From contig NZ_CP088239.1 of NCBI RefSeq assembly GCF_021054785.1, positions 1,380,001 through 1,412,000 on the forward strand: a DNA stretch of 32,000 bases. The letters run 5' to 3'. The notes under the pieces were generated by a model. It worked only from the letters and a program-made list of their open reading frames with translations, was not told where the DNA came from and did not search any database. The position numbers and the translations under genes were made by a program. This DNA comes from Tannockella kyphosi. GTDB lineage: Bacteria; Bacillota_I; Bacilli_A; Erysipelotrichales; Coprobacillaceae. Position 1 is the stretch's first letter; each line of letters starts with the position of its first letter. Of this stretch, positions 10,152 to 28,277 are shown one piece after another.

Positions 10152-10182
10152 CTAAAAAGAAAAAGAAGAACAAAATTCTTCT
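10152..10182 (-). terminator. Intrinsic terminator overlapping the leuS stop codon
   Basis: AGAAGAA-TTTTG-TTCTTCT followed by TTTTCTTTTT on the minus strand. Confidence 0.7.
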
Positions 10183-12580
10183 ATCCTTTTACTACAATAT
10201 TTACTATTTTATTTGGTACTACAATAACTTTTACAATTTCTTTTCCATCAACATGTGCTTTAACATTATCTTGTTGGAAAGCAAGATCTTGAATTACTTC
10301 TTTATCTTCACCCATTGCAACAGTAATCGTTGCACGAAGTTTTCCATTTACTTGTACTGCCATATCTACACTATCACTTACTAACATAGCTTCATCATAA
10401 GTAGGCCATGTTTGATAAGTAACGGAATCATCATTTCCTAATAATTGCCACATTTCTTCTCCAATATGAGGAGCAATACAAGCAACCATTTTTACAAGAT
10501 TTTTTGCATAAGGACGATATACTGTTTCTGCTTTATAACATTCATTTACAAAAATCATCATTTGAGAAATAGCTGTATTGAATCCTAATACTGCAAAATC
10601 ATCTGTTACTTTTTTAACTGTTTGGTGATACACTTTATCTAATTTATGATCATTTTCATCACTTAGTTTGTTTGATTCAACCACTAAACGATAAACTCTA
10701 TCTAACCATTTTCTAGCTCCATCTAGTCCATTTGTAGACCAAGGCAAAGCTGCTTCTAAAGGTCCCATAAACATTTCATAAAGACGTAATGCATCTGCTC
10801 CATGACTTTCTACAATATCATCAGGATTTACTACATTTCCTCTAGATTTAGACATTTTTTCATTATTTCCACCTAAAATCATTCCTTGATGGAATAATCT
10901 TTGCCAAGGTTCTTTTGAAGTGACAACACCACAATCATATAAAACCTTATGCCAGAAACGAGAATATAACAAGTGTAATACAGCATGTTCTGCTCCACCA
11001 ACATATAAATCTACTGGTAACCATTTATTAATTAATTCAGGATCACAAATATGATCTTTATTTGTAGGATCAATATAACGAATATAATACCAACAAGATC
11101 CTGCCCATTGAGGCATTGTGTTTGTTTCTCTTCTACCTGCTTGACCGTCTACTTCAACACTCATCCATTCTTCACAATTCGCTAATGGAGATTCTCCAGA
11201 ATCATGTGGTTGGAAGTTTTTAGTAGCTGGTAATTCTAATGGTAATTGATCCACCTGTACTGTACGCATTGATCCATCAGGCATATGTATAATAGGAATT
11301 GGTTCTCCCCAATAACGTTGTCTACTAAATAACCAATCTCTTAATTTATAAGTTATCTTTCTTTCACCACAACTATGTTCACTTAGCCATTCAATCATAC
11401 ATGCAATCGCTACTTCTTTATTCATACCATCTAAGAAAGAAGAATTAATATGTAAACCATCTTGAGTATAAGCAGTTTCACTAATATCTCCACCTTCTAA
11501 CACTTGAATAATATCTAAATTGAATTTTTTAGCAAATTCATAATCACGATCATCATGAGCAGGTACTGCCATAATTGCTCCTGTACCATAACTAACTAAT
11601 ACATAATCAGCAATCCAAATAGGAATTAACTTCCCGTTTACAGGATTTACTGCATAACTACCAGTAAATACACCTGTTTTATCTTTTGATAATTCTGTAC
11701 GTTCTAAATCTGATTTAGAAGCAATTGATTCTTTATAAGCAGCAACTTCTACTTTTTTATCTGCTGTAGTAATTTCTTCTACATAAGGATGTTCTGGTGC
11801 TAAAACACAATAAGTAGCTCCAAATAAAGTATCACAACGAGTTGTAAATACAGTAAAGACCTTATTAGTACCTTCTATTTTAAAATCAACATTAGCTCCT
11901 ATTGATTTACCAATCCAATTACGTTGCATTTGTTTTGTTGCTTCAGGCCAATCTAAATCATCTAAATCATCAATTAATCTTTCTGCATATTCTGTAATTT
12001 TTAATACCCATTGACGCATTGGTTTACGTACAACAGGATGATCTCCACGTTCTGAACGACCATTAATTACTTCTTCATTAGCAAGAACTGCTTTTAATTC
12101 TGGACACCAGTTTACTGGAATCTCATCTACATAAGCTAATCCTTGATCATATAGTTTTGTAAAAATCCATTGTGTCCATTTATAATAATCAGGATCACTT
12201 GTTGCAATTTCACGGTCCCAATCATAAGAAAAACCTAATGATTTAATTTGTTCTCTAAATACATCAATATTCTTTTCTGTAAACTCTGCAGGATGATTCC
12301 CAGTTTGAATGGCATATTGCTCTGCTGGTAATCCAAATGAATCAAATCCCATTGGATGTAATACATTAAAACCTTGCATACGTTTCATTCTTGAAATAAT
12401 GTCAGTTGCAGTATACCCTTCTGGATGTCCTACATGTAATCCATTTCCTGATGGATATGGAAACATATCCACACAATAATACTTTGGTTTGCTATCATCA
12501 TAGCAATCTGTTTGAAACGTTTTATTTTCATCCCAATATTTTTGCCACTTAGGCTCTACTTGTTTATGATCAAACGGCAT
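10181..12580 (-). CDS. leuS: Leucyl-tRNA synthetase
   Basis: 799 aa with HVGHPEGY (HIGH) and KMSKS motifs and a typical LeuRS N-terminus, [16 protein letters not shown]. Confidence 0.97.
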
Positions 12581-12595: not shown

Positions 12596-12869
12596 AAAAT
12601 TAAAAAAGTCGTCCTAATCTAAGGACGACTAATGTCGCGATACCACCTTAGTTCAAAGTCGCTAAAAAGACTTTGCACCTCAAAACTTTTAACGCAAGCT
12701 ACACGTCATAAACTACTACATTCATTTATGCATCTCCTAGGCGAGTTCACAAGTTCGTTATATCAGTTTCCACCAACCACTGACTCTCTACATTAACTTA
12801 TCTTCCTACTACTCCTAATCACTGATTTTTAATTCTTAAAAATTATAACATATAATTTCTTGAATGCAA
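12596..12869 (-). promoter_or_regulatory. T-box leader (Leu) with its promoter and a classical terminator/antiterminator
   Basis: Promoter TTGCAT-16-TGTTATAAT (12842-12869). AG-bulge AGAGAG and distal-loop GGTGGAAA. Candidate specifier GAA-CTT-G. T-box core GGTGGTATCGCG (12636-12647). Terminator AGTCGTCC-N8-GGACGACT followed by T6 (12601-12630). Confidence 0.85.
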
Positions 12870-12872
12870 AGG

Positions 12873-13079
12873 CTAATTTAAGGAACTTTTAGCTTCAAAT
12901 TCCTTCACTTTTTCCTCTCTTTGTTTTAATCCTCCACCACAATGAATTTGATCCAATGAACAATGATTATGACAACTTGAACATCTAAAAGCATGTAAAT
13001 ATACTTTTAACTCTTCCCCTTCTATTCCTTCATCAGGCATTCTTTTTCTTTTTATTTTTTCTTTTATTTTCCCAAACAT
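12873..13079 (-). CDS. Small Cys-rich hypothetical protein (68 aa)
   Basis: MFGKIKEKIKRKRMPDEGIEGEELKVYLHAFRCSSCHNHCSLDQIHCGGG... with a CxxCxxxCx6C cluster. AAGGGA RBS lies 7 nt upstream of ATG 13079. The ORF-track start at 13115 is a TTG without an RBS. Confidence 0.5.
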   Translation of the reverse strand: MFGKIKEKIKRKRMPDEGIEGEELKVYLHAFRCSSCHNHCSLDQIHCGGGLKQREEKVKEFEAKSSLN

Positions 13080-13170
13080 AATTTTTTCCCTTTTTTTAAC
13101 TCTAATACGAAACAAGTTAGTTTACAAGATATATGCTCTAAAAGGTCACGTTTAGTGACCTTTTAATAAA

Positions 13171-13473
13171 TTATAATTCTTCTTTAATAATTACTTCCTC
13201 TTCACCACATAAACAATCACTAAATAAGTTTAGTTTAGAACGTAATACTGCTTCTAATTGAGTAATTGTTTTAACCATTGATTCTACAGAAGTATTAATA
13301 GCTACTAATGTTTCTAAATCAACATCTTCCATAGCAACTACTGCTTGAATCTTTTCCCCTTCCGCATTCAATATATGTGATAGGGCAGTTTGTTCTAATG
13401 CTACAGACTCAATAATATCAGTAATCGCCTCATCTCGTGTTAATCCACTACTTACAATAACCGGCATTCCCAT
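13171..13473 (-). CDS. Hypothetical helical protein (100 aa) with '...ALSHILNAEGEKIQ...' module and a C-terminal DCLCGEEE tail
   Basis: GAGGTG RBS lies 9 nt before ATG 13473, whereas the ORF-track start 13485 is a GTG inside that RBS. A weak hairpin lies at 13141-13163 downstream. No family assignment made. Confidence 0.7.
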   Translation of the reverse strand: MGMPVIVSSGLTRDEAITDIIESVALEQTALSHILNAEGEKIQAVVAMEDVDLETLVAINTSVESMVKTITQLEAVLRSKLNLFSDCLCGEEEVIIKEEL

Positions 13474-13573
13474 CTGTTTCTTCACCTCTTTTCTACTATA
13501 CTTTATGCATTTATTTTTAATGTGCCTCTACAAAATGCCTATTTTTGAATAGTATAAAGAGAAAGGAGGAAAC

Positions 13574-14404
13574 ATGGAATTAGTTAATATCATTCATTTT
13601 ACTAAATTACCATCTAACTATCACAAAATTCATTTTTGTTTAGTAGATCATATTTGGTATTTTTCTTATCAAAATAAGTTATATATTTATAATTTTTGTT
13701 TTTGTTTAGTAAATATAATAGAACTTACTCATTCTATAAAAGGATTAACATACTGTTCTTATTGCAATAAATTTTTAATTTATAATGATGGGTATTTATA
13801 TTATTACAACAAGCAAATGATGTTAGAACAAAAAATAAGTTTATCATCTTATATCCATCAATACGGATGTATTCATTCCATTGAATGTGAAGAATGTAAT
13901 AAAATAGTATGTTGTTTCAAAAAACACATTCTTATCATTCATTTAACTCAAGTAGATTATTACCTAGAATTTCCTCAAGAATTAGGTGTTTCCATTTGTA
14001 GCACATCTTGCATTCAAAAAGAACGTTATATTTTATCCTATCATCGAATATATACAAAAAATACAAGTTATCCTAGTTATCACAATTATCAAATTATCAA
14101 TAGTTATGGAAGCAATGAATATTTATATGTTCTAGCATATCATGATTGTCATTATATTCTTTTACAATATCTCCCTTGTAAAAACTACCAAAATCATACA
14201 ATTGCTTGTATTGAAAGTAATATTGCTAGAATATTGGACCAAGAAGCCAATAAAATACAGTATGCTTTAATGAATAAATGTTGTATAAAAGATATTATTT
14301 GTATTAATCATTGTGTAAAGGAAACCATTGATAGTGTTACTAAATTAGAATTAGTACTTATCAAGCGACTAATGACTAGTACAAATAACACACAAGTAGA
14401 TTAA
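13574..14404 (+). CDS. Cys/Tyr/His/Ile-rich hypothetical protein (276 aa); its C-terminus shares the helical module of the 100-aa neighbour
   Basis: Strong RBS AAAGGAGGAAAC-ATG and a clean terminator downstream. 19 Cys by count. N-terminal repeats of the type xLYIYN / YLYYYN suggest a beta-rich fold. An open 831-nt frame in AT-rich DNA is unlikely by chance. Confidence 0.75.
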   Translation: MELVNIIHFTKLPSNYHKIHFCLVDHIWYFSYQNKLYIYNFCFCLVNIIELTHSIKGLTYCSYCNKFLIYNDGYLYYYNKQMMLEQKISLSSYIHQYGCIHSIECEECNKIVCCFKKHILIIHLTQVDYYLEFPQELGVSICSTSCIQKERYILSYHRIYTKNTSYPSYHNYQIINSYGSNEYLYVLAYHDCHYILLQYLPCKNYQNHTIACIESNIARILDQEANKIQYALMNKCCIKDIICINHCVKETIDSVTKLELVLIKRLMTSTNNTQVD

Positions 14405-14445: not shown

Positions 14446-14476
14446 AAAAAACGAGCACTGCTCGTCTTTTGTTTTT
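14446..14476 (+). terminator. Intrinsic terminator after the 276-aa gene
   Basis: ACGAGC-ACT-GCTCGT followed by CTTTTGTTTTT. Confidence 0.8.
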
Positions 14477-14874: not shown

Positions 14875-16959
14875 TTATTGTTGTATTGGTTTTGTTGCAT
14901 AAGCTGCTATTGCTAAAGTAGAAGAGTTATGTAACCAAGCAGATGTTGTTGCAGGAATAACCCCTAGTAAACCAAGGATAATTAGGACGGTATTAAAAGA
15001 TACAATCATACCATATTGTTGATGAATTTTATCTATTAATCCTGTCGCCAATTTTCTAGCTTCTACAATCTTCATTAAATCATCATGTAAAACGGAAATA
15101 TCAGCTACTTCTCTAGCAATATCAGAAGATCCATTTAGTGTTAGTGATACGTTTGCAGCACTAAGTGCTGGCGCATCATTAATACCATCTCCTACCATTA
15201 ATACTGTTTTTCCACTTGTCTTTAAAGATTCCACAATATTTGCTTTTCCATCTGGTAAAACAGAAGAATAATATTTTTGAATTCCTAATAAATCACAAGT
15301 GTATTTTGCATTTCCTTCACTGTCTCCAGTAATCATAATCACTTCTTGAATACCTACTTCATATAACAAAGAAATCATTTCTTTTGCTTCTTTTCTAGGT
15401 GGATCATTCACACAAACAACCCCTACCAAGATTCCATCTATCGCTAAATAGACAGCACTATCGTTGGCAATCATTTCCGTTAACCATCCCTCTTTTTCAA
15501 TCGGATATGTTACTTTTTCATCATCAAAAACAAAGTGTTTACTACCAATAATAGCTCTTTTATCGTTATAGGTACTTGCAATACCATGGGCTACAATATA
15601 CTCTACTTTCCCATGACTTTCTGGATGTAATAACCCTTTCTCTTTTGCATCAGTGACAATCGCTAATGCAACACTATGTGGAAAATGTTCTTCTAAGCAA
15701 GCTGCTACTTTTAAAATCTCATCTTCATTATATTCATCACTAATAGGAATAATCTTTGATACTTTCGGAAGTGCATTAGTAAGAGTTCCTGTTTTATCAA
15801 AAACAACCGTATCCACTTCTGATAAAATTTCTAAATATTTCCCACCTTTTATTAAAATACTGTTATTGACACTTTCTTTTAGTGCTGAAATGATTGTTAT
15901 CGGTGTTGTTAATTTAATAGCACAAGAAAAATCGACCATCAATACAGTTAGTGCTCTTGTAAAGTTACCAGTCAACGCTAACGTTACTGCAAACATACCA
16001 AAGCTTACTGGTACAATATCATCTGCTAATCTTTCAGCATTGCCTTGAATATTTGCTTTTTCTTTTTCACCTGTATCAATTAGATTTAGAATTTTTGCAA
16101 TTCTAGAATCATTTCTCAAACTTTCTACCATTACATTAATTTCGCCATCTTCTATCACAGTTCCTGCAAACACACTACCATTTGTACTCTTATGTACCGC
16201 TAATGGTTCACCAGTCATTGTTGATTCATTAATAAAAGCATCTCCAGATACAATTGTTCCATCAATTGGTATTAAACTTCCCTGACGTATTTTAATAACA
16301 TCTCCAACTTGTACTTCTTCCATTGGGATTTCTATTTCTACATTATCTTTTACCAACCATACTCGATCAACACTAATCGATAAGCTTTGAGCTAGGGCAT
16401 TTTTAGCACGCATATTCGCATATTCTAATAACATATCCGATAACTGTAATAAAAACATGGTTGAACTTGCTGTTTTATAATTCTTACAACAAAGTGATGT
16501 TCCTATTGCAGTAGCATCTAACACTTCTACATTTAATTTTTGTTCTTTTAGGGAATGTAATCCCATTTTAAAATAGGGAATCGCACGATAACAAGCAAGA
16601 TATCCTCGACAACCAGTAGGAAGAAAAGCTGCTTTTGCAAACTGTTTCACACAGTGTGCCATTACTTTTGTTTTTATTTTTTCCTCTAATTGTTTTGTTT
16701 TTTGCTCTTCATTCCCTTCGCTTTCACTTAAATCATATACTGATAAGTTTGCAAGTAACTCTAATACAGTATTTCTTAAGTCTTGATCACGATATTCAAT
16801 AAGCACTGATCCATTCGCATCATTTACATATGCATTTTCTATTCCATTATAAGAAAGGAGCATGTCGGCCAAAGCAAAACATTGCCCCTTAGAGAAGACA
16901 TATTTCCCAAAACGTAGTCTTAAACGACCAGGCTTATCGCATACTATTTTATATTTCAT
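14875..16959 (-). CDS. P-type (P1B-like) ATPase with a non-canonical membrane metal motif (FSCA) and a Cys-free HMA-like N-domain
   Basis: MTGEPL (TGE), VVFDKTGTLT, MITGD and GDGINDAPAL are present. The TM segment MVDFSCAIKLTTP aligns by eye to xxCPCALGLATP of CopA. N-terminus is MKYKIVCDKPGRLRLRF... Confidence 0.9.
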   Translation of the reverse strand: MKYKIVCDKPGRLRLRFGKYVFSKGQCFALADMLLSYNGIENAYVNDANGSVLIEYRDQDLRNTVLELLANLSVYDLSESEGNEEQKTKQLEEKIKTKVMAHCVKQFAKAAFLPTGCRGYLACYRAIPYFKMGLHSLKEQKLNVEVLDATAIGTSLCCKNYKTASSTMFLLQLSDMLLEYANMRAKNALAQSLSISVDRVWLVKDNVEIEIPMEEVQVGDVIKIRQGSLIPIDGTIVSGDAFINESTMTGEPLAVHKSTNGSVFAGTVIEDGEINVMVESLRNDSRIAKILNLIDTGEKEKANIQGNAERLADDIVPVSFGMFAVTLALTGNFTRALTVLMVDFSCAIKLTTPITIISALKESVNNSILIKGGKYLEILSEVDTVVFDKTGTLTNALPKVSKIIPISDEYNEDEILKVAACLEEHFPHSVALAIVTDAKEKGLLHPESHGKVEYIVAHGIASTYNDKRAIIGSKHFVFDDEKVTYPIEKEGWLTEMIANDSAVYLAIDGILVGVVCVNDPPRKEAKEMISLLYEVGIQEVIMITGDSEGNAKYTCDLLGIQKYYSSVLPDGKANIVESLKTSGKTVLMVGDGINDAPALSAANVSLTLNGSSDIAREVADISVLHDDLMKIVEARKLATGLIDKIHQQYGMIVSFNTVLIILGLLGVIPATTSAWLHNSSTLAIAAYATKPIQQ

Positions 16960-21225: not shown

Positions 21226-21396
21226 GGATTTAAAATTTCACCTGTGGCTTTGACTACTTTAGAGAGGGTTCTACCACACCTTATTCCAAAATAACAATTA
21301 GTTAGATGAGTCTCGAATTCGTATATTGAACCAGGTTTTATGGTTTAAGTGTCGTGGTTACACAATCGCATAAAAAAGAAAGAAGGTACAACTACT
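21226..21396 (+). ncRNA. Candidate bridge (guide) RNA region in the 5' non-coding arm of the IS110 element
   Basis: About 170-290 nt of non-coding sequence lies upstream of the recombinase, as in IS110-group elements where a bridge RNA has been described. Local stem-loops are visible (e.g. AACCA-GGTTTTA-TGGTT). No covariance test was possible. Confidence 0.3.
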
Positions 21397-22581
21397 ATGA
21401 AAATCATTGGCATCGACATTGGCAAACTAAGTCATGTTTTTTCTGTTATGAACAAAGAAGATGGAGAAATCTTAGTTAACGCATCAAAGATTTCAAACAA
21501 CAAAGAAGGGTTTGATTATCTTATAAAGACATTAAATAAATATCCAAAAGATCAAATCCTTATTGGTATGGAAGATACCGGTCATTATCACTTTGCATTG
21601 CTCAAGTATTTACTCGTTAAGAAGTACACTGTTGCACTAATTAATCCAACAACTACTGATTTATCACGCAGACTCCATGGTGGTATTACAAAAACAGATG
21701 CACTTGATACGATAACAATTTGTGATATCTTATCTTCATCAAATCGTAATAAAGCCTATCGTATTTCAAAAGAAAACTCATTTGAGTTTTATGAACAAAA
21801 GCAATTAACAAGGCATCATCATAATTTAAAAGAAGAATTAAACGTCTACACAAATCGTCTTCAAAAGTGTATTGATATTGTTTTCCCTGAATATAACAGC
21901 CTTTTTAAGTCAAAATACGGAAATGTATATATGCGTTTATTAAAAACATTTCAAAGCGCTAGTAAAATATCAAAAGCTGATATACGCCTAATTCGTAAAT
22001 GCTTTGATATTAAGGGAAGAGGATTAAGGATTTCATTAACTCCTGAAGAAGTGAAAGAAGTAGCCAAACATTCCATTGGTATGTCATCGATTGCAGAAGA
22101 AATTCAAATCAAACATTTAATTGATCAAATTGAATTACTTAAGGCACAACTTGATGAAATAGACAAAAAAATAGAAGAGTTTTCCATTGAAAACAACTCT
22201 CCTATACTATCCATACCAGGAATTTCTCACTTCTCTGGTACGTCTATTTTAACAGAATTAGGAAATATAAACAACTACTCTAAATCTTCTAAAATAATTA
22301 AATTTGCAGGAGTTGCTCCATATCATTATGAATCAAGCCAGTACACAGCCAAACACAGCGCAATAACAAAGAAAGGTTCTAAGTACTTAAGAAAAACCTT
22401 ATATCAAATTATCTTGCCTGTAATCAATCATAACCCCGTGTTTAAAGCCTACTATCAAGAAAAGCTAGCACAAGGGAAAGGACATCGTTGTGCCCAAGGT
22501 CACTGCATCCGAAAATTACTTCGAGTTATATATCATTTATTAAAAACAAATCAAACATTTGATCCATCATTATTACGATAA
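21397..22581 (+). CDS. IS110-family transposase/recombinase (DEDD N-domain plus Transposase_20-type C-domain)
   Basis: MKIIGIDIGKLSHVFSV..., GMEDTGHYH and TDALDT motifs, and a C-terminal GxxxxTA...GDI-like region. The start is placed at ATG 21397 rather than the ORF-track GTG at 21349. Confidence 0.9.
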   Translation: MKIIGIDIGKLSHVFSVMNKEDGEILVNASKISNNKEGFDYLIKTLNKYPKDQILIGMEDTGHYHFALLKYLLVKKYTVALINPTTTDLSRRLHGGITKTDALDTITICDILSSSNRNKAYRISKENSFEFYEQKQLTRHHHNLKEELNVYTNRLQKCIDIVFPEYNSLFKSKYGNVYMRLLKTFQSASKISKADIRLIRKCFDIKGRGLRISLTPEEVKEVAKHSIGMSSIAEEIQIKHLIDQIELLKAQLDEIDKKIEEFSIENNSPILSIPGISHFSGTSILTELGNINNYSKSSKIIKFAGVAPYHYESSQYTAKHSAITKKGSKYLRKTLYQIILPVINHNPVFKAYYQEKLAQGKGHRCAQGHCIRKLLRVIYHLLKTNQTFDPSLLR

Positions 22582-24109: not shown

Positions 24110-24808
24110 TTATTTTATGGTTTGTTTCTCATTTTCTTTTTTACAACGCCCACGATAATCTTCCATCATCTTTTTGAATATTTCTCCATTAGATGGTGGT
24201 GTATACGTAATAGCATTGGCACCAGCTTGGATTGCTTCTTTAATCGTTTCATCACTAGGTCCACCAGTTGCAATAATAGGGAAATCAGGATCTATTTTAC
24301 GTAATTCCTTGATAATTTTCACTGTATCTTTGCCACCTGAAACATTAACAATACTTGCTCCAGAATGAAGCATTCTTTCTTCTAAGTCTTCATCTAAAGA
24401 AATAATTGATAATACAATAGGAATATCAATATGTTGTGCTAATGATTTAATGAATTCTGTTTTAGTAGGAGCATTTAAAACGACTGCTATTGCCCCGTGT
24501 AATTCTGCATCTAATGCAATTTCACGAACTCTTGAACCAGCTGTAGTACCACCACCTACTCCAACAAATACTGGACGTTGTGAGACATCGATAATTGCAT
24601 TTGTTATTTGAAGAGTTGGGGTAAAAGGATATACTGCAATAATTGCATCTCCATCACTATTAGCAATGACAGCAACATCGGTTGAAAATAACAAAGATTT
24701 CACTCTTGTTCCATTAATGATAATTCCACTTGCATCACGAATACACTTAGGAACACTTACATTATGTCCACGAAGTTTGGAATTAATTACTGGGACTTCT
24801 TTTTTCAT
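24110..24808 (-). CDS. Uncharacterised TIM-barrel-like, phosphate-binding-type protein
   Basis: 232 aa. The alternating beta/alpha pattern with VGVGGG..., IVNVSGG and [23 protein letters not shown] resembles ribulose-phosphate-binding barrels. No specific family recognised. Confidence 0.6.
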
Positions 24809-27319: not shown

Positions 27320-27419
27320 CCATATTTCTATTTCAATAAAAGATTAATAGTCATAAAAGACAAATCACCTATACCACTTCTCTTTATAAGCATAATCTAT
27401 CATGTAAGGAGGTGAAAAT

Positions 27420-28277
27420 GTGAATAGAAAAGATAAATATCAATTACAATTTGGTGATGAATTAAGCTTAGTAGAGACTGAGGAATTAGTCCAAGACTTA
27501 GACTTGGATACTGTTGATATCGGTTATACTGGTGGTGTTACAGGATGTGTGGTTGATGAAACAAATACGGTTGTAGCAGGAGCTACAGTAAAAATATTTG
27601 ATAACAACTTTAAACCTATTAAGCATACAATGACTGATGAAAATGGTCAGTATAATTTATCTAGTCTAGAACCTGGAACTTATACATGTCACGCTATTAA
27701 AGATGGTTATAGTTTATCTCAAAAGATTACTGTTTCTATTAATGATACTTTTGTAACCTTAAATGATATTATAATTACTAAAAACTTAGTAATTAGTAAT
27801 GGTATTTTATATGGTATTGTGTATAACAAATACAATGTGCCTTTAGGAGATGTTGAAGTTGTATTATCTAAAATAGTGGATGGAGAGGAAGAAGTCGTAT
27901 CACGAACACTTAGTGCTCGTGATGGAGAATATGTTATTTACGACTTAGATGCCGGTATTTACCAATTATATGCGTCAAGTGAAGATTATTATTTAGATGA
28001 TAAGATTGATGTTGTTATTACTTTAAATGCGAATACGAAAGAATATCTATATCTTACAAAAAGCAATAATGCAAAAGAAGGAACAATTAATGGTATTATT
28101 AGAGATAAAAAAACATTAACTCCATTATCAAATGCTTGTGTTTGTTTATATACGATCGATGAAGAAAGTGAAGAAAGCTTAGTTTCTATGACTTTTACAA
28201 ATCGAGATGGAAAATACTTCTTTGGATATGTTCCAGAAGGAAGATATATTGTTAAATCTAAGGTGAGTCAAGAATGA
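27420..28277 (+). CDS. Protein with three carboxypeptidase-regulatory-like (CarboxypepD_reg / Ig-like beta-sandwich) repeats and no signal peptide
   Basis: GTG start 27420 follows an AAGGAGGTGA RBS; the ATG at 27418 is followed immediately by TGA. Three repeats of the type G.V.D....P..GA.V.......T.TD..G.Y.L..L..G.Y. Confidence 0.7.
   Translation: MNRKDKYQLQFGDELSLVETEELVQDLDLDTVDIGYTGGVTGCVVDETNTVVAGATVKIFDNNFKPIKHTMTDENGQYNLSSLEPGTYTCHAIKDGYSLSQKITVSINDTFVTLNDIIITKNLVISNGILYGIVYNKYNVPLGDVEVVLSKIVDGEEEVVSRTLSARDGEYVIYDLDAGIYQLYASSEDYYLDDKIDVVITLNANTKEYLYLTKSNNAKEGTINGIIRDKKTLTPLSNACVCLYTIDEESEESLVSMTFTNRDGKYFFGYVPEGRYIVKSKVSQE

Follow-up and report, generated by a model that had tools for sequence, protein, structure and literature searches.

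Alpha endospore appendages (A-ENA), or "sporesilk," were described in 2026 in an insect pathogen, in which they hold spores and toxin crystals together (Sleutel, Sogues and Remaut, Nat Commun 2026; PMC13111695). According to that study, the fibers are 8 nm wide and double-helical and surround the spores and toxin crystals of Bacillus thuringiensis israelensis (Bti). The subunit is a 101-amino-acid (aa) alpha-helical hairpin with a 13-residue N-terminal lock. It self-assembles without helpers, even in the cytoplasm of E. coli, and five types of intermolecular isopeptide bonds (IPBs), formed autocatalytically, lock the fibers covalently. Expression of a-ena is restricted to sporulating cells, and its promoter carries a predicted SigK site. 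Fusions with an N-terminal A-ENA domain (collagen/C1q "ruffles") were argued to insert in or at the fiber terminus, and the study surveyed "C-terminal fusions" within the B. cereus group; its authors describe as speculative their extensions to A-ENA homologues beyond this group. Here, we analyzed a window of 32,000 nucleotides of Tannockella kyphosi (contig NZ_CP088239.1, positions 1,380,001 to 1,412,000), AT-rich in composition (27 to 34% GC), in which a divergent gene pair flanked by leuS and a P-type ATPase gene encodes a 100-aa protein and a Cys-rich 276-aa protein. We consider it probable that this pair constitutes a sporulation-expressed A-ENA-type fiber system.

Within its structural family, the 100-aa protein is closely related to the A-ENA fiber subunit of B. 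thuringiensis. The ex vivo subunit (PDB 9ihh) matched residues 1 to 82 with an E value of 3.8e-15, and identity to Bti A-ENA was approximately 49%. A search at E <= 1e-3 returned 1153 homologues, and PF26595 was annotated on all 120 among the matches listed. The protein starts with the lock sequence MGMPVIV, in agreement with the N terminus of the family, where M1, M3, P4, and I6 do not vary and position 2 holds G or S, and it ends with the tail LFSDCLC; an LFxxCLC tail was found in this protein and in 53 of 76 relatives. The AlphaFold2 (AF2) model, made from a 24-sequence alignment, predicts two helices (residues 13 to 46 and 53 to 85) preceded by 12 extended, free residues (mean pLDDT, 73). 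The sequence match, together with a predicted structure of hairpin plus N-terminal lock, thus argues for membership in A-ENA. Scans of the three proteins of the locus against local Pfam and NCBIfam libraries gave noise only; the local Pfam copy contains no PF26595 model, hence the empty Pfam scan for A-ENA proteins.

The initial annotation had described the locus as a cluster of three unknown small genes, two of them sharing a module of about 55 aa. All three open reading frames (ORFs) were recovered from the ORF list of the window at the same coordinates, but two of them are members of a family that has a name and a solved structure (PF26595, PDB 9ihh), and the third, encoding a 68-aa protein, probably lies outside the unit. 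The shared module proved significant and spans about 58 aa. Indeed, Smith-Waterman alignment (BLOSUM62) of residues 23 to 81 of the 100-aa protein with residues 209 to 266 of the 276-aa protein scored 72, a value reached by none of 2000 + 2000 shuffled sequences (mean, 28 to 29; standard deviation, 4.5; maximum, 58). Similarly, a hidden Markov model (HMM) built from 24 small-subunit homologues matched residues 210 to 268 of the 276-aa protein (E = 5e-6), and a precomputed PF26595 (A_ENA) match is on record for both proteins. BLASTP did not align the two, probably as an effect of composition correction on the skewed 276-aa sequence; we gave precedence to the shuffle-tested alignment and the HMM. 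By sequence comparison, the module is shared beyond chance, its homologues belong to the characterized A-ENA family, and the significant profile match supports placing the 276-aa protein in PF26595 as well.

We then mapped the IPB residues listed in Table 1 of PMC13111695 onto the 100-aa protein and 76 related small subunits. For IPB1, the Gly2 N terminus, Gln44, and the catalyst Glu41 of Bti correspond to G2, Q43, and E40; the triad is conserved in the subfamily and invariant in the 76 relatives. The IPB2 residues (Lys42, Asn64, and catalyst Glu39 in Bti; K41, N60, and E38 in the 100-aa protein) are likewise conserved and essentially invariant. For IPB3, Lys84, Glu29, and the catalyst Glu28 correspond to K80, Q28, and E27, which are conserved, the donor lysine being present in 75/76 sequences. 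The IPB4 donor (Lys77 in Bti) is a leucine in the 100-aa protein and in 73/76 relatives. Finally, both donor and acceptor of the inter-protofilament pair forming IPB5 in Bti are replaced in the 100-aa protein, and these positions are variable in the subfamily. Judging from these residues, the subfamily could form axial bonds at most. The C-terminal CxC tail may have a role in disulfide formation.

The 276-aa partner combines a Cys-rich N-terminal domain with the A-ENA hairpin at its C terminus. Its unusual composition, noticed at the outset as 19 Cys (about 7%) with many Tyr, His, and Ile residues, was borne out by the counts: 19 Cys (6.9%), 30 Tyr (10.9%), 35 Ile (12.7%), and 15 His, with 15 of the 19 cysteines in the N-terminal domain. 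The AF2 model, made from a 3-sequence alignment, consists of approximately 17 short strands followed by a helical hairpin (residues 210 to 233 and 238 to 271), and the xLYIYN motifs, initially read as beta-hairpin-like, sit on predicted strands. In its A-ENA domain, the IPB2 triad (K, N, E) is intact, and the acceptors of IPB1 (Gln) and IPB3 (Glu) are retained.

To place the N-terminal domain, we searched for relatives. A word-indexed database search with the 276-aa protein found only the protein itself, and one with a 30-member profile of similar Cys-rich partners (described below) found only 2 proteins. A HMMER scan of 1.8 billion representatives with the N-terminal 207 residues identified P0125 as the only relative (277 aa; 32% identical across the N-domain; E = 6.6e-15); it is encoded in a sister species at a syntenic locus with the same divergent layout beside a 99-aa A-ENA gene. 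P0125 and the 276-aa protein are 33 to 35% identical, versus 69% for the small subunits and 80 to 90% for the flanking DNA, which fits a surface-exposed, fast-evolving N-domain in the partner. Within the species, single-nucleotide polymorphisms (SNPs) in the partner gene comprised 3 synonymous changes and 1 V>I change. We take the partner gene to be real, because it has a strong ribosome-binding site (AAAGGAGG), a terminator, a full-length orthologue, and mostly synonymous SNPs.

Since jackhmmer with the partner N-domain against all ORFs of the related loci retrieved only the query, a profile-profile comparison was needed. Using hhalign, the pair of the 276-aa protein and P0125 aligned to 29 Cys-rich partners over 271 columns with 99.4% probability (E = 6.7e-22), and the N-domains alone aligned to the class with 87% probability (E = 3.9e-6; reversed query, E = 0.28). 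The class profile matched the YjiK beta-propeller (PDB 3qqz) with its N-terminal part (E = 2.4e-5 over approximately 100 residues, followed by weak WD40 matches) and the A-ENA subunit 9ihh with its C-terminal part (E = 4.4e-14). The 276-aa protein alone gave no sequence match to YjiK/3qqz, and none of the 30 Cys-rich partners had a domain match in the local Pfam library. We therefore refer to the N-domain as "propeller-like" with moderate confidence only.

To determine how widespread this arrangement is, we scanned one genome per GTDB species, and small-subunit genes turned up at 80 loci belonging to Oscillospiraceae, Lachnospiraceae, Flavonifractor, Lawsonibacter, Angelakisella, Anaerotignum, Erysipelotrichaceae, Longibaculum, and others. 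So far, the module is confined to Bacillota lineages that include spore formers. The A-ENA modules of five loci (L058, L067, L069, L072, and L082) come from metagenome-assembled genomes labeled "uncultured Muribaculaceae" (Bacteroidota, not spore formers), and these labels likely reflect mis-binned Bacillota contigs. When the A-ENA HMM was run on all ORFs of the 80 loci, the small gene was usually found accompanied by larger proteins with a C-terminal A-ENA domain. These fall into two groups, one Cys-poor (300 to 1100 aa) and one Cys-rich (257 to 430 aa with 4.7 to 11.7% Cys). Cys-rich partners were present in 34/80 loci, forming 18 divergent pairs with the small gene, while approximately 46/80 loci showed none nearby, some loci being incomplete at their ends. 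Many genomes of Clostridia and Erysipelotrichia thus combine a small subunit with a larger Cys-rich protein that has an A-ENA domain at its end.

The N-terminal lock is missing from all 30 Cys-rich partners examined, and the passenger domain occupies its position. They keep Lys42, Asn64, and Glu39 of IPB2, the IPB1 acceptor Gln44 (29/30), Glu29 (30/30), and Lys84 (29/30), and the place of the catalytic Glu28 is taken by Ile, Val, or Met. As for the Cys-poor group, its genes usually lie just 3' of the small gene on the same strand (for example, L007 6503-7783, L009 6381-7703, L024 6543-7946, L059 6342-8417, and L055 7519-10830), and none was found in the window. Group 1 glycosyltransferases were the commonest nearest neighbors of A-ENA modules (17/126 neighbors), with genes directly 3' of the module in L007, L009, L011, L015, L017 to L019, L024, L029, L040, L045, and others. 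This frequency hints that the A-ENA fiber or the Cys-poor partner is glycosylated; the window has no such neighbor.

We next examined the spacer between the two genes for expression signals. It had been given as 88 bp, a value that applies only to an alternative upstream GTG at 13485 lying within the ribosome-binding site. The start codon is the ATG at 13473 and the spacer 100 bp, because the invariant MGMP N terminus of the family needs that start. A mother-cell sigma -10 element with imperfect -35 spacing had also been proposed upstream of the A-ENA gene, and the CATAnnnTA sequence is indeed present (CATAAAGTA at 13499-13507, minus strand). A single site of this kind was rejected as evidence, its count in the window being near chance (46 versus 41 expected); the element is meaningful because of comparative enrichment upstream of the family genes. 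CATAnnnTA occurred within 150 nucleotides (nt) upstream of 52/85 small-subunit genes versus 51/786 control ORFs, with positions clustering at about -52 and -30, and AC-N13-18-CATAnnnTA preceded 37/85 small-subunit genes versus 14/798 control genes (Fisher P = 3e-30). The CAC-N14-CATAAAGTA layout is common to the Erysipelotrichaceae/"Bacilli" loci among those listed, and only two sites in the window conform to CAC-N13-15-CATAnnnTA, one of which is the A-ENA element. Among the Cys-rich partner genes, 21/30 have an exact upstream CATAnnnTA. The 276-aa gene itself has no exact copy and is preceded by a weaker candidate, AC-N16-AATAGTATA, with one mismatch. A consensus scan of the 100-bp spacer found no sigma-70-type promoter on either strand. 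The promoter proposal thus gained comparative backing, and the motif enrichment supports predicted mother-cell (SigK/SigE-type) transcription of the A-ENA gene.

On this basis, we propose the following model. A SigK/SigE-type promoter would drive synthesis of the 100-aa subunit in the mother cell, and the helical hairpins of this subunit would stack into cross-alpha protofilaments, locked by IPB types 1 to 3 (Gly2 N terminus-Gln43, Lys41-Asn60, and Lys80-Gln28). Bond types 4 and 5 of the Bti fiber would be absent, and the conserved CxC tail may contribute disulfide links. As a minor terminal subunit, the 276-aa protein would dock on a fiber end with its lock-less C-terminal hairpin and be captured there covalently, chiefly in the role of acceptor. 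The Cys-rich propeller-like N-domain of this protein would then either anchor the fiber to a cysteine-cross-linked spore surface or serve as an exposed binding tip. The high cysteine content and the faster divergence relative to the small subunit fit a surface-exposed anchor or adhesin, and the evidence does not separate the two. We infer the terminal position from the analogy with the ruffle fusions and because a 200-residue domain in the position of the lock should clash inside the stack.

Several observations weigh against this model. The position of the partner at the fiber end is purely inferential, and the 100-aa protein could form no more than 3 of the 5 bond types of Bti. A Foldseek search with the model of the small subunit failed to recover 9ihh, simple hairpins being structures that score poorly. 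The 276-aa model has a mean pLDDT of 53, with block means of 67 to 80 for residues 21 to 90 and low values elsewhere, and the top listed Foldseek matches, almost all WD40 or other beta-propellers, reach a TM score of only 0.22 to 0.28. The A-ENA match of the 276-aa protein is the weakest of its class (E = 5e-6 versus 1e-13 to 1e-23). Its covalent capture may be weak, as the IPB3 donor (K to R at Lys84) and two catalytic glutamates, that of IPB1 (E to N at Glu41) and that of IPB3/4 (E to I), are lost. In the promoter element, the CAC-N14 spacing is shorter than the canonical 16 to 17 of SigK, and CATAnnnTA is expected about once per ~700 nt by chance. Finally, the window, the only region looked at in this respect, contains no recognizable sporulation gene. 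For its part, the spore-surface role guessed at in the initial annotation is supported, as the family forms endospore appendages and its founding gene has a SigK-type promoter active only in sporulating cells.

Three other explanations have to be weighed against an A-ENA-type fiber. The 276-aa protein could be an intracellular regulator, a cap or nucleator that controls polymerization and thereby fiber number and length. Nucleation control is plausible for a subunit that polymerizes spontaneously in E. coli; a partner without a lock, and here also without two catalytic glutamates and the IPB3 donor, could bind without propagating the stack; and divergent, coregulated transcription would provide a fixed stoichiometry. 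We nevertheless regard such a function as unlikely. A purely intracellular regulator should not diverge far more rapidly than the subunit to which it binds, a cysteine content of 5 to 12% is unexpected in such a protein and typical of extracellular or spore-surface cross-linked proteins, and the approximately 46 loci without a Cys-rich partner nearby indicate that it is not generally required.

Alternatively, the A-ENA-like proteins might form a coat or exosporium layer, or a vegetative extracellular matrix, with which the Cys-rich protein copolymerizes. The basal layers of coat and exosporium typically contain Cys-rich proteins that self-assemble (CotY/ExsY, CsxA), the extension of A-ENA function beyond the B. 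cereus group is speculative in its authors' own words, and no gene in the window attests to the ability of the host to sporulate. This is set against the conservation of the lock, the hairpin length, and the axial IPB1 to IPB3 triads, which favors the same stacked filament, against the enrichment of the SigK-like motif, which argues against vegetative expression, and against the lack of an evident signal peptide in the 100-aa and 276-aa sequences, which fits mother-cell products. A layer or matrix of this kind hence appears distinctly unlikely. The idea of a self-assembling Cys-rich coat layer had already been raised from the sequence of the locus; it gives way here to the more specific proposal of an isopeptide-cross-linked cross-alpha fiber with a Cys-rich accessory subunit. 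It is very improbable that the 276-aa ORF is a decaying, nonfunctional duplicate of an A-ENA fusion, with only the 100-aa gene functional and the three ORFs sharing no joint function. The weakest A-ENA score of the class, the lost key residues, the extreme composition of a protein encoded in AT-rich DNA (10.9% Tyr, 12.7% Ile), and a word-indexed search that found only the protein itself would be in line with decay. Yet the 276-codon frame is intact in DNA of 27% GC and has a strong ribosome-binding site and a terminator, the 277-aa orthologue is full length and has the same layout, polymorphism within the species is limited to three synonymous and one conservative change, and the protein aligns over its full length to a recurrent class. 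A sporulation-expressed A-ENA-type fiber is thus the reading that we retain. The coordinates of the locus and of other features in the window are given in Table 1.

Table 1. Features of the A-ENA locus and of neighboring regions (window coordinates)
Feature	Position	Strand	Remarks
a-ena-like gene, 100-aa protein	13171-13473	minus	A-ENA major-subunit homologue; ORF, PF26595, and 9ihh match
Partner gene, 276-aa protein	13574-14404	plus	Cys-rich, beta-rich N-terminal domain (1 to ~207) and C-terminal A-ENA hairpin (~210-268)
Partner N-terminal passenger domain	13574-14194	plus	All-beta, repeated xLYIYN-type strands, probably propeller-like
Partner C-terminal A-ENA domain	14201-14377	plus	Model helices 210-233 and 238-271; without N-terminal lock
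Divergent control region, 100 bp	13474-13573		Between A-ENA gene and partner gene
Mother-cell (SigK/SigE-type) promoter-like element, CAC-N14-CATAAAGTA	13499-13524	minus	-10-like nonamer starts 34 nt upstream of A-ENA ATG
Weaker candidate promoter of partner gene, AC-N16-AATAGTATA	13530-13556	plus	One mismatch to CATAnnnTA; read from sequence
Ribosome-binding site of partner gene, AAAGGAGG	13562-13569
Terminator-like hairpin, 11-bp stem AAAAGGUCAC...GUGACCUUUU	13139-13165	minus	Directly 3' of A-ENA stop codon
Intrinsic terminator-like site	14451-14465	plus	3' of partner gene; consensus scan
68-aa ORF, CxxCxxxCx6C	12873-13079	minus	Adjoins A-ENA pair
leuS sigma-70 promoter	12870-12842
leuS T-box leader	12618-12831
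leuS (LeuRS gene)	10181-12580	minus
P-type ATPase gene	14875-16959	minus
IS110-family transposase gene	21349-22581	plus	Between acyltransferase and DHFR/thymidylate synthase genes
232-aa ORF	24110-24808	minus	Between thymidylate synthase and ThrRS genes; no Pfam match
Promoter-like site of 285-aa protein gene	27375-27399		CAC-N13-15-CATAnnnTA; 3' end 20 nt before start codon
285-aa protein gene	27420-28277	plus	CarboxypepD_reg/SdrD_B/SpaA-like beta-sandwich repeats; no evident signal peptide

The 68-aa ORF had been counted as the third gene of the cluster on account of its CxxCxxxCx6C motif. The motif is present (C33-x2-C36-x3-C40-x6-C47, read from the translation), but the ORF was rejected as a member of the module, as it is absent from the sister species, is separated from the A-ENA gene by the strong terminator-like hairpin, and had no homologue in the searches made. 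The hairpin has a folding energy of -15.2 kcal/mol (z, -3.7), and 0/200 shuffled sequences folded as well. Neither jackhmmer nor tblastn found a homologue of the 68-aa protein in the 80 related loci, and PDB, Pfam, and NCBIfam gave none, no full-database similarity search having been made. No known Cys-cluster family (4Fe-4S or zinc ribbon) was matched, the hits being sub-threshold only (DUF3079, E = 0.029), and at 90% identity the protein forms a cluster of its own in the protein collection. The leuS sigma-70 promoter and T-box begin right after its stop codon. In the sister species (L085, 1-212), a segment of approximately 290 bp corresponding to window positions 12873 to 13170, which holds this ORF, is lacking, and the leuS T-box starts about 50 nt after the A-ENA stop. 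The 68-aa ORF is thus probably a lineage-specific neighbor without a demonstrated link to the A-ENA pair. In place of the P-type ATPase and DUF6110 genes of the window, the sister species has the remnant of a group II intron, and the A-ENA locus is thus a local hotspot of rearrangement and divergence between flanks that are 80 to 90% identical.

The 285-aa protein gene lies further downstream in the window, and the promoter-like site in front of it is the only other CAC-N13-15-CATAnnnTA. Full-length homologues of this protein are encoded immediately downstream of the A-ENA gene in L058, L067, L069, and L072 (41 to 44% identity) and in L041 (31%), and SdrD_B is a passenger domain of A-ENA fusions (PMC13111695). 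The 285-aa protein may represent a third coregulated spore-surface component. We put forward more tentatively, as a possibility still in doubt, that gut and environmental Clostridia and Erysipelotrichia have a two-component A-ENA fiber. Its small subunit would be held by no more than the three axial isopeptide bonds and a disulfide-forming CxC tail, and a Cys-rich propeller protein with a C-terminal A-ENA hairpin, not described before, would be captured covalently at one end of the fiber as an anchor to the spore surface or as a tip that evolves rapidly and binds hosts or surfaces. The 285-aa protein would add a third, coregulated component.

The locus and its 80 relatives place the self-cross-linking A-ENA fiber in gut-associated anaerobes without toxins, where the fiber gene is usually paired with putative accessory subunits that go unmentioned in the main text of PMC13111695. 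Should the Cys-rich propeller fusion prove to be an anchor or adhesive tip, it would open a concrete route to the attachment, clumping, and host-to-host transmission of commensal spores. It would also provide a natural, genetically encoded means of displaying a functional domain on a protein nanofiber of extreme stability. The locus also adds comparative evidence for sporulation-type promoters across Clostridia and Erysipelotrichia.

Compared with known systems, the profile of the partner class matches YjiK (3qqz) at the N-domain; the domain of the 276-aa protein is shorter (about 200 aa) and Cys-rich and has no functional link to YjiK. The S-/L-ENA of the B. cereus group comprise, according to the part of their description considered here, Ena1A/B/C and Ena3A (DUF3992), L-BclA tip fibrillae, and an Ena1C anchor. 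Within that description, the likeness consists in a spore-surface fiber built from a small self-assembling major subunit and minor terminal subunits that serve as anchor or adhesive tip, with cysteines for covalent stabilization, and the difference in a beta jellyroll fold with disulfide-only cross-links instead of an alpha hairpin. Pfam gave no DUF3992 match in the three proteins of the locus, which we do not assign to the S-/L-ENA.

The A-BclA-type fusions (N-terminal A-ENA followed by collagen-like and C1q domains, or by SdrD_B/OmcB or 4Fe-4S passengers) likewise set a larger A-ENA protein with a passenger beside a single-domain subunit, and in both these fusions and the 276-aa protein, the IPB residues are largely kept, suggesting insertion at a fiber terminus. 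In the 276-aa protein, however, the order is reversed, with the passenger N-terminal and the A-ENA domain C-terminal, there is no N-terminal lock, and the passenger is Cys-rich and beta-propeller-like, with no Collagen or C1q match and no G-x-y repeats. It is thus not an A-BclA "ruffle." The reversed architecture does not appear in the main text of PMC13111695, and the Cys-rich partner is a fusion type that this main text does not describe.

The closest relatives remain Bti A-ENA and A-ENA1 (Q8KNV8/Q8KNV7; 9ihh). The 100-aa protein shares with them a length of about 100 aa, the MGMP lock, the two-helix hairpin, the ILNAEGEKxQ motif, the IPB1 to IPB3 residues, and an upstream SigK-like CATAnnnTA. 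Its C-terminal CxC resembles the CxC tail of A-ENA1. The latter (L088 4321-4632, B. thuringiensis pAM65-52-4-128K) ends in ...KLCSCRKSSDY, the major Bti A-ENA has no cysteine, and the words "cysteine" and "disulfide" are absent from the main text of PMC13111695. Unlike the Bti gene, which is located on the toxin plasmid, the gene in the window is chromosomal, between leuS and the P-type ATPase gene, and its product is missing the IPB4 donor (K77 to L) and the IPB5 pair. Where Bti has an adjacent amidase gene, a second small paralogue, and Cry/Cyt genes, this locus harbors a Cys-rich fusion partner instead.

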